From the NCBI RefSeq assembly GCF_054482525.1, contig NZ_CM137006.1: 64,000 nt of DNA; one strand, given 5' to 3'. The notes beneath the pieces are model-generated. The model was given only the letters and a program-made list of their open reading frames with translations. It ran no database searches and was not told the origin of the DNA. Positions 55,372 through 59,159 of the stretch are shown here, piece after piece (position 1 is the first letter of the stretch; every line of letters starts with the position of its first letter). A program made the position numbers and the translations under genes.

Positions 55372-55974
55372 ATGGAAGCGCGAATTTCAACTGAACGGCA
55401 TGTGCAGCACCAGCAAAAATTGAAGGAACAGGTCGATACGCGCGTCGCGGCGGCGATAGAGAAAAAAGGGATCTTGATTGTTTTCACCGGCAACGGCAAA
55501 GGGAAATCCACTGCCGCGTTTGGTACTGTGACGCGCGCGGTGGGTCATGGCAAAACGGTGGGGGTTGCGCAGTACATCAAGGGGCAATGGGACAACGGCG
55601 AATACAACCTTCTCCAGCCGCTGGGGGTTGAGTTTCATATTATGGGAACCGGTTTTACCTGGGAGACACAGAACCGGCAAGCGGATATCGACGCGGCGAA
55701 AGAGGTCTGGTCGGAAAGCAAACGGATGCTGGCTGACAAGCGTTACGACTTAGTGGTGCTTGATGAGCTGACCTATATGCTGGCTTACCATTATCTGGAC
55801 ACCGAAGAAGTGATCGCTTCTCTGCAAAACCGCCCGGCACAACAAAGTGTCATTGTCACCGGACGCGGTTGCCACAGTCAGATATTAAAAATGGCGGATA
55901 CGGTCAGCGAAATCCGCCCCGTCAAACATGCTTTTGATAACGGCATTCAGGCGCAGCCGGGTATCGACTGGTAA
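55372..55974 (+). CDS. Cob(I)alamin adenosyltransferase (CobA/BtuR family), cluster-associated
   Basis: 200 aa; P-loop VFTGNGKGKSTAAFG and ...WETQNRQADIDAA...DLVVLDELTYM...TGRGCH...VSEIRPVKHAF matching remembered E. coli BtuR. Confidence 0.88.
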   Translation: MEARISTERHVQHQQKLKEQVDTRVAAAIEKKGILIVFTGNGKGKSTAAFGTVTRAVGHGKTVGVAQYIKGQWDNGEYNLLQPLGVEFHIMGTGFTWETQNRQADIDAAKEVWSESKRMLADKRYDLVVLDELTYMLAYHYLDTEEVIASLQNRPAQQSVIVTGRGCHSQILKMADTVSEIRPVKHAFDNGIQAQPGIDW

Positions 55975-56685
55975 TAAATATCCTCCGGCATAGCCGGAGG
56001 TTTTTCAAATGCGCCTATAAGGCTCTCTTACCAGCCGCGCCCTAACAGGCGCACACGATCTGACATTTGCATCCAACTTCGTTACTTACGGCCCGTAAAC
56101 GGGCTGCCCGGATAGGGAATCGATAACTGCTCTCCCATTTTATCCTCTTCAAGCTGGTGCTTTATGTAATCCTGTATCTTCGCCGTGTTCTTACCCACCG
56201 TATCGACGTAGTACCCTCTGCACCAGAACTCCCTGTTCCTGTATTTGAATTTCAAATCACCAAACTGCTCGTAAAGCATCAGACTGCTTTTCCCTTTCAG
56301 ATATCCCATAAAGCCGGATACGCTCATTTTGGGCGGGATCTCCACAAGCATATGGATATGATCTGCACAGCATTCAGCTTCCAGAATCCGTACACTTTTC
56401 CACTCACACAGCTTTCTCAAAATACTGCCTATTGCTCTACGCTTCTCTCTGTAGAACACCTGTCTTCGGTATTTTGGCGCAAAAACTATGTGATATTTAC
56501 AGTTCCATCGGGTGTGCGCTAAGCTCTTTTCGTTCCCCATTGGGACCCCCTTTTGATTTCTTGTTTGACACTTGCAGTTGCCAGACCGCAAGGTGTTTTA
56601 ACAAATCAAAAGGGGTTTTAATAACTGGCTTAAAGCTGAAAGCTTTCCGGAACCCCCAGCCTAGCTGGGGGTTTTCTGTGCACAA
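55973..56685 (-). mobile_element. IS200-family insertion sequence, copy 2, 713 bp
   Basis: Identical by eye to 19138..19850 including transposase gene and both subterminal hairpins; begins within/at the TAA stop of the adenosyltransferase gene. Confidence 0.9.
56082..56540 (-). CDS. tnpA: IS200-type Y1 (HUH) transposase TnpA
   Basis: Protein identical to that of copy 1 (supplied ORFs 19247..19756 and 56082..56591 are identical). Confidence 0.9.
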   Translation of the reverse strand: MGNEKSLAHTRWNCKYHIVFAPKYRRQVFYREKRRAIGSILRKLCEWKSVRILEAECCADHIHMLVEIPPKMSVSGFMGYLKGKSSLMLYEQFGDLKFKYRNREFWCRGYYVDTVGKNTAKIQDYIKHQLEEDKMGEQLSIPYPGSPFTGRK

Positions 56686-56718
56686 TAACTGCGCCTGGCA
56701 TCCCGCCAGGCGCAGGTT

Positions 56719-57624
56719 TTACATCTCCTGCGGTACAACCGATTTCGCCAGCAACCATTCACGAAATTGCTGCAAGTGCGGTGAGTCAGACTTCTCTTCC
56801 TGCCACGTCATAATAAAACGATTACCGGTACGAATAGGCACATCACAGGGAATCACCATATCGCCACTATCCAAATCATGTTGAATAGCGAACCGTGGTA
56901 ACAGCGCCACGCCGAGATTAGAGCGCACGGCGGCAATCAGCATTGAAAGCAAATCGAAACGTGGTCCGTTGTTGACCAGCGGACTGCTAACGCCAGATAA
57001 GGCAAACCACTCTTCCCAGCCAGTAATACGGGTACTTTGATGCAGAAGTGGTAACTCTGTAAGCAGTTCTGCCACTGACAGTTTTTGATCGGACATTGCA
57101 AGCAAACTGCCGCTGCATACCGGCAAAATCTCCTCTTCAAAGAGATATTCTACTTCCGCCCAGGGCGCGCAAAAATTTTCGCGCATAATGACAGCATCGT
57201 ACTCCCGATTAAGAAAATCGCCGTTATTAGCTAAAGAGTGAATATTAACAATAATATCGGGATGTAACTTTGTGAATTCATGTAAATTTGGGATTAACCA
57301 GTGGGTACTAAACGTAGGATTCACGGCAAGTTCAATAACCTTAACTGTAGGTTGCCAGGTCATAATGGTATTGGTATCGCGTTCCAGCTTATTTAATGTT
57401 TCTTTTACTATCCCCAGGTAATACTTCCCTGCATCATTAAGAAAAATACGTTTTTTAGAGTGTGAAAATAACGGAGTATGTAAAAATTCCTCCAGCGCAC
57501 TCACTTGTCTGAATACTGCACTTTGGGTTAACGCTAACTCCTCTGCCGCTCTGGTATAACTTTCATGACGTGCGACGACCTCAAAAGTCACCAGCAGTTC
57601 CGTTTTAGGTATTTTTCCTCGCAT
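56719..57624 (-). CDS. LysR-type transcriptional regulator
   Basis: 301 aa; N-terminal HTH ...FEVVARHESYTRAAEELALTQSAVFRQVSALEEFL, C-terminal periplasmic-binding-protein-like effector domain. Confidence 0.85.
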   Translation of the reverse strand: MRGKIPKTELLVTFEVVARHESYTRAAEELALTQSAVFRQVSALEEFLHTPLFSHSKKRIFLNDAGKYYLGIVKETLNKLERDTNTIMTWQPTVKVIELAVNPTFSTHWLIPNLHEFTKLHPDIIVNIHSLANNGDFLNREYDAVIMRENFCAPWAEVEYLFEEEILPVCSGSLLAMSDQKLSVAELLTELPLLHQSTRITGWEEWFALSGVSSPLVNNGPRFDLLSMLIAAVRSNLGVALLPRFAIQHDLDSGDMVIPCDVPIRTGNRFIMTWQEEKSDSPHLQQFREWLLAKSVVPQEM

Positions 57625-58190
57625 AATGCCGTCCCTTAAAAATAGTTTAAACCATCAAAAATACATTACTTATTACGAAGTAATGGTAACCAAAGCAGCA
57701 ATAAATAATTTATAAGAATCATGATTGACATTTATAACCCAGTAAGCCTGGCGTGACAAATATCTTAATCAGATAATAATAATCCGAAAAGCACAGCGCC
57801 TTTCGAATTATCCGGAATCACATTAAGTGAAAATTATTAAATTGATATCATTTATCATATCTGTGGATATTATGATAAACAATCAACAAAGATTTTATTT
57901 TTGATTTATAGCATATCCCTCTAAGAATTTTTGCGATGCTGCAATATCCGGGGTAAAGACCCGATCCTGGCTGACAAATGGCACGACTTGACGATAAGCG
58001 GTGAACATCGCTTTTGTTGATTTACTTAACGCTACGGTCAAACGCTGGGAAGCCAGTGCATCAGGTAACGATTCGAAATTCGCCGTCGTTCTTATTCGTG
58101 GCTTGCGGTCGGTTGCGGCAATCCACAGTGGCTGTGGTCATGCAGTCAAGCCAGCGGTCAGATTTCGACCGTGGTTAACATTTAAGGCAT

Positions 58191-58214
58191 AAAAAAGGCC
58201 ATCATACGATGGCC
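58191..58214 (-). terminator. Rho-independent terminator of sucABCD
   Basis: On minus strand ggccatcgtatgatggcc hairpin followed by tttttt. Confidence 0.8.
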
Positions 58215-58289
58215 AACCATGTCGAAACCGACAGCCCTTCGCCATTCCTGTAGAGGGAAGCGGCGAGGGCTATTTCTTATTACAGATAT
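58191..58289 (-). ncRNA. sdhX: Putative 3-prime-UTR-derived sRNA SdhX (RybD) of the sdh-suc operon
   Basis: ~100 nt between sucD stop and the terminator hairpin; in E. coli this 3-prime UTR gives rise to SdhX; boundaries approximate. Confidence 0.5.
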
Positions 58290-59159
58290 TTATTTCAGAA
58301 CAGTTTTCAGTGCTTCACCGATATCCGCCAGGCTGCGAACGGTTTTCACGCCTGCGGCTTCCAGAGCAGCGAATTTCTCATCCGCAGTCCCTTTCCCACC
58401 GGCAATGATGGCACCCGCGTGGCCCATACGTTTGCCTTTCGGCGCAGTCACACCAGCGATGTAACCCACAACAGGCTTGGTAACGTGCTCTTTGATGTAC
58501 GCAGCCGCTTCTTCTTCAGCGCTACCGCCGATCTCACCGATCATCACGATCGCTTCGGTCTGCGGATCTTTTTCGAACATTTCGAGGATGTCGATAAAGT
58601 TAGAGCCAGGGATCGGGTCGCCGCCGATACCAACACAGGTCGACTGACCGAAACCGTAATCCGTGGTCTGTTTAACCGCTTCATAGGTCAGTGTACCGGA
58701 ACGGGAAACGATACCCACTTTACCCGGTTTGTGAATGTGACCAGGCTGGATACCGATTTTGCATTCACCCGGAGTGATAACGCCTGGGCAGTTCGGGCCG
58801 ATCATGCGAACGCCCGCTTCATCCAGTTTCACCTTCACGGTCAGCATATCCAGCGTCGGGATGCCTTCAGTGATGGTGATAATCAGTTTGATGCCTGCAT
58901 CAATAGCTTCCAGAATGGAGTCTTTGCAGAACGGTGCTGGTACGTAGATAACAGAAGCGGTAGCGCCAGTAGCAGCAACAGCTTCACGCACGGTGTTGAA
59001 CACCGGCAGGCCGAGGTGGGTGGTGCCGCCTTTACCTGGGGTTACGCCGCCAACCATTTTAGTGCCGTATGCAATGGCCTGTTCTGAGTGGAAAGTCCCC
59101 TGGCTACCGGTAAAGCCCTGGCAGATAACCTTGGTGTTTTTATCAATTAAAATGGACAT
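58290..59159 (-). CDS. sucD: Succinyl-CoA synthetase alpha subunit
   Basis: 289 aa [45 protein letters not shown]. Confidence 0.96.

Follow-up and report, generated by a model that had tools for sequence, protein, structure and literature searches.

Positions 57625-58190 of the window (the whole 64,000-nucleotide stretch analysed, from contig NZ_CM137006.1 of assembly GCF_054482525.1) are, with high confidence, the remains of a deleted accessory operon, and neither a gene nor a regulatory device. The small open reading frame (ORF) within them is a fossil reading frame and a standard deletion relic, and the fragment is already known in public records. The sequences compared show directly how the fragments are related to intact genes, where they join, which genomes carry them and how the ORF has decayed. 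This removes a false small-gene candidate and leaves the 565-bp unannotated gap as deletion debris together with a native promoter region.

Layout and composition of the region

The window is E. coli DNA, and the region is flanked by a LysR-type regulator (LTTR) gene and by the end of the suc operon, whose genes sucABCD all lie on the minus strand. Its features are listed below, with reference to the intact counterpart in strain LR-60 (locus sequence L004).

56719-57624, minus strand: LTTR gene, with its start codon at 57624
57625-57894, no strand assigned: native intergenic region upstream of the LTTR gene, ungapped and collinear with LR-60 (234/270 positions identical)
57731-57759, minus strand: candidate sigma-70 promoter of the LTTR gene (TTGTCA at 57759-57754, a 17-nt spacer and TATAAA at 57736-57731)
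57778-57812, minus strand: long hairpin with a stem of about 15 bp, downstream of the lyase stop codon, predicted in both alleles
57841-57887, minus strand: first of the two hairpins, AT-rich and immediately following the lyase stop codon, predicted in both alleles
57895-58032, minus strand: 3' relic of a HAL/PAL/TAL-family lyase gene, its last 46 codons (45 plus stop), from blastn against LR-60 (L004 25549-25686)
58028-58088 (61 bp), minus strand: internal lyase fragment, residues 378-397 of the 556-aa LR-60 protein, from blastn (L004 26030-26090, 83.6% identity)
58092-58148, plus strand: internal RtcB-family fragment, YSWLAVGCGNPQWLWSCS, from blastn (L004 35172-35228, 91.2% identity)
58151-58192, plus strand: RtcB-family 3' end, its last 13 codons, PAVRFRPWLTFKA, plus the stop codon at 58190-58192, from blastn (L004 35404 onward, 97% identity)
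58197-58214, minus strand (58214-58197): sucD operon terminator hairpin followed by a T-run, from a terminator scan
58290-59159, minus strand: sucD, ending at 58290

The sequence-only reading had described an AT-rich interval that lacks a long ORF. The second part stands, as the longest ORF in the ORF list is 63 aa. AT-richness holds for 57625-57894 (270 bp, 28.9% GC) and does not extend to the remainder, where GC content is 44.8% (57895-58088) and 52.0% (58089-58190).

The sucD terminator was the sole convincing terminator in a consensus scan of the region, and a consensus promoter scan returned two plus-strand matches, a count not above shuffle expectation. No transposon ends flanking the region were found in a repeat search, which returned only short repeats that probably reflect chance. 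An Rfam scan of 55900-58700, with E up to 1, placed no RNA family inside 57625-58190; its matches, to the IS200-associated STnc490 and a terminator-like match, both lie outside the region.

An IS200-family element is located at 55978-56683, between cobO and the 3' end of the LTTR gene. It includes tnpA (56082-56591, minus strand) and the STnc490 match (56550-56673, 146 bits). This insertion at the cobO/LTTR site is absent from LR-60, ST69, N3, 6EVA and Sakai.

The intact locus and its distribution

In LR-60, the interval from cydA to sucD begins with two hypothetical genes, glmS, glmL, glmE and genes for methylaspartate ammonia-lyase, an AtuA-like protein, a DUF4387 protein and a symporter, followed by a class I fumarase gene, cobO and the LTTR gene (minus strand). 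A hut-like operon comes next, comprising a HAL-like lyase gene (1,671 bp), hutG, hutI, hutD, a permease gene and hutU, all on the minus strand. An RtcB-family gene on the plus strand then precedes sucD on the minus strand.

Up to the LTTR gene, the island of the window is 98.7% identical to that of LR-60, and the LTTR coding sequence itself is 97-100% identical between the two strains. Divergence between the alleles jumps from about 1% within the LTTR gene to about 13% at its start codon. Sensitive blastn of window 57500-58400 against LR-60 returned four collinear segments, whose junctions were inspected base by base and whose register offsets differ by 348, 9,078 and 173 bp. The segment at 57500-58032 corresponds to L004 25154-25686 (89.5% identity) and spans the 5' end of the LTTR gene, the 270-bp intergenic region and the last 138 nt of the HAL-like gene. 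At the other end, 58151-58400 corresponds to L004 35404-35654 (97.2%) and spans the RtcB 3' end, the sucD terminator and the sucD 3' end.

A glutamate-fermentation (methylaspartate) cluster with FumD and a LysR-type regulator has been described in O157:H7 (Kronen and Berg 2015, PMC4682846). The same cluster is present in the window, with glmS/L/E, mal and genes for DUF1446/AtuA-like, transporter, FumD-type class I fumarase, cobalamin adenosyltransferase and LTTR proteins, and the relic lies directly upstream of its LTTR gene. The text of PMC4682846 contains none of the terms 'histid', 'pseudogene' or 'sucD', and mentions neither a hut-like operon nor a relic beside the LTTR gene.

Window 57600-58300 (701 bp) was compared by megablast with 5,426 complete E. 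coli genomes, 835 of which contain the query in full. K-12-type genomes match query positions 584-701 only, which are window 58183-58300 and hold the sucD 3' end and terminator. A further 142 records match the left 60% only, at ~88% identity and under the annotation 'HAL/PAL/TAL family ammonia-lyase'. When the query was restricted to the relic (57880-58182, 303 bp), it was recovered in one piece at 97-100% identity in 832 genomes, and the relic with identical junctions is found in about 15% of sequenced genomes. The intact hut-like locus, counted where at least 80% of the 10.3-kb stretch is present, occurs in 144/5,426 complete E. coli genomes (about 2.7%).

The interval from cydA to sucD varies among strains and has at least four configurations. 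The fourth, which is without hut-like genes, is that of 6EVA (L005 1613-10109): behind the methylaspartate island and LTTR gene come 464 bp of other sequence, a full-length RtcB gene, the mngB-mngA-mngR block and finally sucD. Island and mng genes are therefore not mutually exclusive, and loss of the hut-like genes was an independent event in this strain. In ST2747 (L010 1-145 and upstream) the LTTR gene is annotated as frameshifted, so the island's regulatory gene also decays.

Fragments of a lyase gene on the minus strand

The sequence-only reading had pointed to a 37-aa peptide encoded on the minus strand from 58008 to 57895, and the ORF list gives exactly that translation. The full ORF, 57895-58041, encodes 48 aa from a TTG codon; its internal ATG at 58008 opens MFTAYRQVVPFVSQDRVFTPDIAASQKFLEGYAINQK, with the stop codon at 57895-57897. 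The 37-aa ORF falls inside the lyase 3' relic. Translation of this relic matches residues 511-556 of the LR-60 lyase at 41/46 positions (89%; BLASTP, E=6e-27), and the internal fragment matches at 18/20 (BLASTP, E=1e-08).

The two pieces are joined in frame, with a net loss of 348 bp, equal to 116 codons. Their junction falls at the imperfect repeat AAYGCCA (AATGCCA / AACGCCA), and the fusion product reads TANFESLPDALASQRLTVAL joined directly to SKSTKAMFTAYRQ, ending in INQK and the stop codon. The position of that stop codon is the same in the relic as annotated in LR-60 and ST69. Judged from these alignments, the 37-aa ORF is open only through the reading frame and stop codon inherited from the lyase gene.

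Only 66 of the 535-556 lyase codons survive in the window, and two deletion junctions were mapped. The fragments thus show what a gene relic is recognised by: similarity to the family, collinearity at the orthologous position, loss of most of the coding sequence and no sign of purifying selection. Compared with the intact LR-60 gene, 20 of the 29 differences in the lyase pieces are at third positions, and the changed codons comprise 18 synonymous against 6 non-synonymous. The closest intact E. coli allele is at most about 88% identical to the relic. A search of a protein database with the relic peptide, using an index that needs shared exact words, matched only short fragments and no full-length protein.

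Fragments of an RtcB-family gene on the plus strand

Collinear fragments of the RtcB-family gene are found at the site that the intact gene occupies in LR-60, where it matches the NCBIfam RtcB models. The internal fragment agrees with the intact gene at 17/18 translated residues, and the 3' end is identical at 13/13 residues plus the stop codon, with only 3 synonymous differences. Across both pieces, 7/8 differences from LR-60 are at third positions. A net 9,078 bp is missing between the internal RtcB fragment and the internal lyase fragment, and a net 173-bp deletion, which is out of frame, separates the two RtcB pieces. The window therefore shares sequence with RtcB-family RNA ligase genes, including their authentic C-terminus and stop codon, but keeps only 99 bp of a gene that is ~1.4 kb when intact, in two pieces mutually out of frame.

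A plus-strand ORF of 63 aa (58001-58192) runs antisense to the lyase relic and closes with the 13 genuine C-terminal codons of RtcB and their stop codon. It is a chimera of out-of-frame relic pieces and not a gene.

Bacterial deletion pseudogenes, including those marked 'incomplete' by PGAP or left without annotation, likewise consist of collinear fragments that keep the parental frame and stop codon, with junctions and with decay through frameshift and nonsense changes. What sets the present case apart from ordinary deletion pseudogenes is only that each of two genes, encoded on opposite strands, is represented by two fragments, which is why antisense ORFs of 48 and 63 aa overlap here.

Probable history of the deletions

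The ancestral lineage would have carried a larger island between cydA and sucD, with the glutamate/methylaspartate fermentation genes, the LysR-type regulator, a hut-like operon (hutU, permease, hutD, hutI, hutG and the HAL-like lyase) and the RtcB-family gene. Three deletions (net 348, 9,078 and 173 bp) would then have removed about 9.6 kb, at least the first of them (348 bp) at a short imperfect repeat. The leftovers would be the unaltered region upstream of the regulator gene, two lyase fragments fused in frame on the minus strand and two RtcB fragments on the plus strand. The comparison favours deletion rather than insertion as the direction of change. Intermediates with only one or two of the three deletions were absent among 60 sampled relic-query matches, and for this reason we infer the order and mechanism of the deletions rather than read them from surviving forms.

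All three junctions are shared, because the relic query lies unbroken in the 832 genomes that match it. Shared junctions point to a single origin. Persistence of the relic could be read as retention, although common descent explains it equally well. From the divergence pattern, the relic descends from a divergent allele of the hut-like module and not from the LR-60 allele itself. Most of the 9-16% divergence arose while both alleles were functional, because the differences concentrate at third positions.

A mosaic arrangement is seen in HS4 (L006 121-821, equivalent to window 57600-58300), in which the 150 bp nearest the LTTR gene (57600-57750) are identical to LR-60 and the remainder is of the window type. 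This places a recombination breakpoint within the intergenic region, and the interval has been shuffled by recombination.

Comparison with K-12

The sequence-only reading had placed the promoter and gene of mngR here in K-12. The promoter is not at this position: K-12 mngR converges on sucD, so that its 3' end abuts the sucD terminator and its stop codon aligns with window 58183-58185. In the window lineage, the island stands in place of the whole mngR-mngA-mngB block. A remnant of mngR was considered and rejected, as homology to K-12 begins at 58183 and nothing in 57625-58182 derives from mngR. The earlier suggestion that the ORF could be a remnant of a displaced gene was nevertheless right in kind, since it is a lyase 3' end; the gene in question belonged to a hut-like operon, encoded a lyase of the HAL/PAL/TAL family and was neither mngR nor any other K-12 gene. 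The two other options offered for the ORF, a leader peptide and noise, did not survive the comparison.

The segment upstream of the LTTR gene

In LR-60, the counterpart of 57625-57894 separates the stop codon of the lyase gene from the start codon of the regulator gene. Folding of 57900-57765 on the minus strand gave a minimum free energy of -31.8 kcal/mol (z=-3.1), and the same two hairpins are predicted in LR-60 (z=-3.7). These two hairpins plausibly ended the lost operon, and the one at 57778-57812 is a possible terminator of that former upstream operon.

Both hexamers of the candidate promoter are kept in the LR-60 allele, which is otherwise 13% divergent, and AAGGGA stands eight bases upstream of the LTTR ATG. 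The TTGTCA-17-TATAAA arrangement would thus be the promoter of the LTTR gene, by its sequence and position; a stricter promoter scan passed no minus-strand promoter, the candidate at 57759-57731 included. Together, these elements suggest an ordinary order of terminator, promoter and 5' UTR ahead of the LTTR gene. Some incidental transcription of the region may occur, for instance by read-through from the suc operon, which is strongly expressed and shares this strand.

Coding status of the small ORF and alternative explanations

The length of the small ORF is no evidence for a gene, because an ATG ORF of at least 37 codons arises in 67% of 2,000 shuffles in which the composition of both halves was kept. 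Sequence inspection found no Shine-Dalgarno-like sequence upstream of either the ATG at 58008 or the TTG at 58041. When eight relic-type strains were aligned, ETEC1748 proved to lack 1 bp within the ORF, and three replacements (Y to F, A to E, E to D) stand against 1 synonymous change. The window has a stop codon at a site where ST69 reads through to give an 84-aa 'hypothetical protein' in the PGAP annotation (WP_001309348.1). Variants in the protein database are 37, 48, 50, 64, 81, 84 or 97 aa long; the stop codon is lost in P0003, frameshifts occur in P0006, and the Shigella dysenteriae version (P0007) stops prematurely. Escherichia sp. E1V33 (P0009) shows independent decay, with an internal deletion that differs from the one in the window.

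Annotation of the relic is equally uneven. PGAP leaves it without annotation in N3, O157:H7 and others and elsewhere calls a 'hypothetical protein' of varying length, with starts and lengths that differ by strain (37, 48, 64, 73, 81, 84 and 97 aa). In several NCBI records the fragment has already been named 'histidine ammonia-lyase' by submitters. The 37-97-aa calls under either name at this site in E. coli and Shigella are therefore fragments of one decayed gene. O157:H7 Sakai carries the relic at 841515-842180. The part of the Sakai catalogue of translated intergenic small ORFs that was available (PMC5597208) has no entry for it by peptide, by flanking gene or by coordinate (8415xx-8420xx), a weak negative given that coordinates may shift slightly between genome versions.

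As a coding frame the small ORF is not conserved, being broken or variable in length in several strains, an outcome that the sequence-only reading had named as counting against it. The combination of a conserved frame and a start signal, which would mark a functional small protein or leader peptide, was not found. With frameshifts, a premature stop, stop loss and replacements among the genomes that carry the relic, the ORF appears to be free of purifying selection and drifting neutrally, as judged in a small strain sample from raw change counts rather than formal dN/dS.

Against this background, co-option of the relic as a small protein gene of 37-84 aa, of which WP_001309348.1 in ST69 would be one version, is highly improbable. 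An open frame of 37-84 codons does exist in many strains, is annotated as a coding sequence in some, and belongs to a stretch with 97-100% identity over 832 genomes. Such identity is, however, what recent common descent gives, and the inconsistent starts and lengths, the stop in the window where ST69 reads through, the frameshift in ETEC1748-type strains, the stop loss, the premature stop and the excess of replacements over synonymous changes all speak against a maintained protein, as do the missing Shine-Dalgarno sequence and Sakai entry. Less probable still is that the region encodes a small regulatory RNA distinct from the sucD 3'-UTR RNA, which is already known. The region adjoins a strong terminator and contains structured AT-rich sequence, but the Rfam scan placed nothing within it and its hairpins are accounted for as the end of the lost operon.

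Control of the LTTR gene by the ORF, as a leader peptide or within an attenuator, has a probability close to nil. The ORF does precede the regulator gene and is read from the same strand, with predicted hairpins in between. Yet it ends 270 bp ahead of the regulator start codon, a conserved promoter-like site follows the hairpins, and the regulator gene is intact in strains in which the ORF is frameshifted or truncated. Moreover, LR-60 has the same hairpins and intergenic sequence where the corresponding frame is the end of a 535-556-aa enzyme gene. Equally negligible is a non-coding region with a chance ORF, or a remnant of K-12 mngR: an ORF of this length is common in shuffled sequence and mngR does occupy this position in K-12, but the ORF translation shares 89% identity with the C-terminal end of an intact protein whose gene occupies the orthologous site, and K-12 homology is confined to the sequence from 58183 on. 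Debris of a deleted operon thus remains by far the most probable reading.

The parent enzyme and the proposed lost module

In LR-60 (L004 25549-33290) the lyase gene heads the hutG-hutI-hutD-permease-hutU operon, beside the methylaspartate cluster. The intact LR-60 lyase scores 292 bits against the Treponema denticola ergothionase (PDB 6s7j) and 172 bits against Pseudomonas putida histidase. Against NCBIfam histidine ammonia-lyase models it gives E=3e-87 and 293 bits, below the cut-off of 524 bits. It reads GSIGAA-D where the P. putida HAL reads GSVGASGD, and is thus without the Ala-Ser-Gly that forms MIO. According to two preprints from 2025-2026, absence of MIO marks trimethylammonia-lyases, among which Lys384 binds the ergothioneine thiolate in ergothionase and separates ergothioneine-specific enzymes from histidine-betaine lyases (bioRxiv 10.1101/2025.08.13.670108, 10.64898/2026.04.22.720169).

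Within the HAL/PAL/TAL family (Pfam PF00221), the intact orthologue therefore shares the absence of the MIO tripeptide with the MIO-less trimethylammonia-lyases, which include the T. denticola ergothionase and the Shewanella histidine-betaine lyases. It is not an ergothionase in the strict sense, because the E. coli orthologue has Ile opposite the essential Lys384 (T. denticola numbering) in the ungapped block GFGSLHIPF / AFGTIQKTF. By these residues, the parent lyase resembles an enzyme that acts on a sulfur-free histidine betaine. Such an enzyme would yield urocanate, in keeping with the co-located hutU, hutI and hutG. Both diagnostic sites, the MIO tripeptide and Lys384, lie in the deleted parts, and the diagnosis applies to the intact orthologue only. 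In the ancestral configuration, a MIO-less lyase of the ergothionase/histidine-betaine-lyase type would have headed a hut-like operon that was linked with the methylaspartate pathway.

That the relic is the trace of a lost module for the catabolism of histidine betaine or ergothioneine, still intact in the 144 genomes with the full locus, is a tentative proposal to which we give slightly less than even confidence. If it is true, the module would consist of a MIO-less trimethylammonia-lyase with hutU, hutI, hutG, hutD and a permease, beside the methylaspartate cluster, and the whole island would turn dietary histidine betaine into trimethylamine and glutamate, and then into fermentation products. 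This would also provide a genetic basis, and a strain-dependence, for the 'ergothionase from Escherichia coli' of Wolff 1962, which a 2026 review doubts on the grounds that no homologue is annotated in E. coli (PMC13405746). A literature search on hut genes in E. coli found nothing specific. Should trimethylamine be released by this lyase, some lineages of E. coli, including ST648, would be unrecognised gut producers of it from dietary histidine betaines.

The N-terminus of the intact LR-60 lyase (L004 27157-27219) deserves a separate comment. Alignment with ergothionase starts at residue 27, and an in-frame Met is present at residue 22. A signal peptide was considered and rejected on this basis, as the signal-like N-terminus is likely untranslated. 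Translation of the LR-60 lyase probably begins 21 codons downstream of its annotated start.
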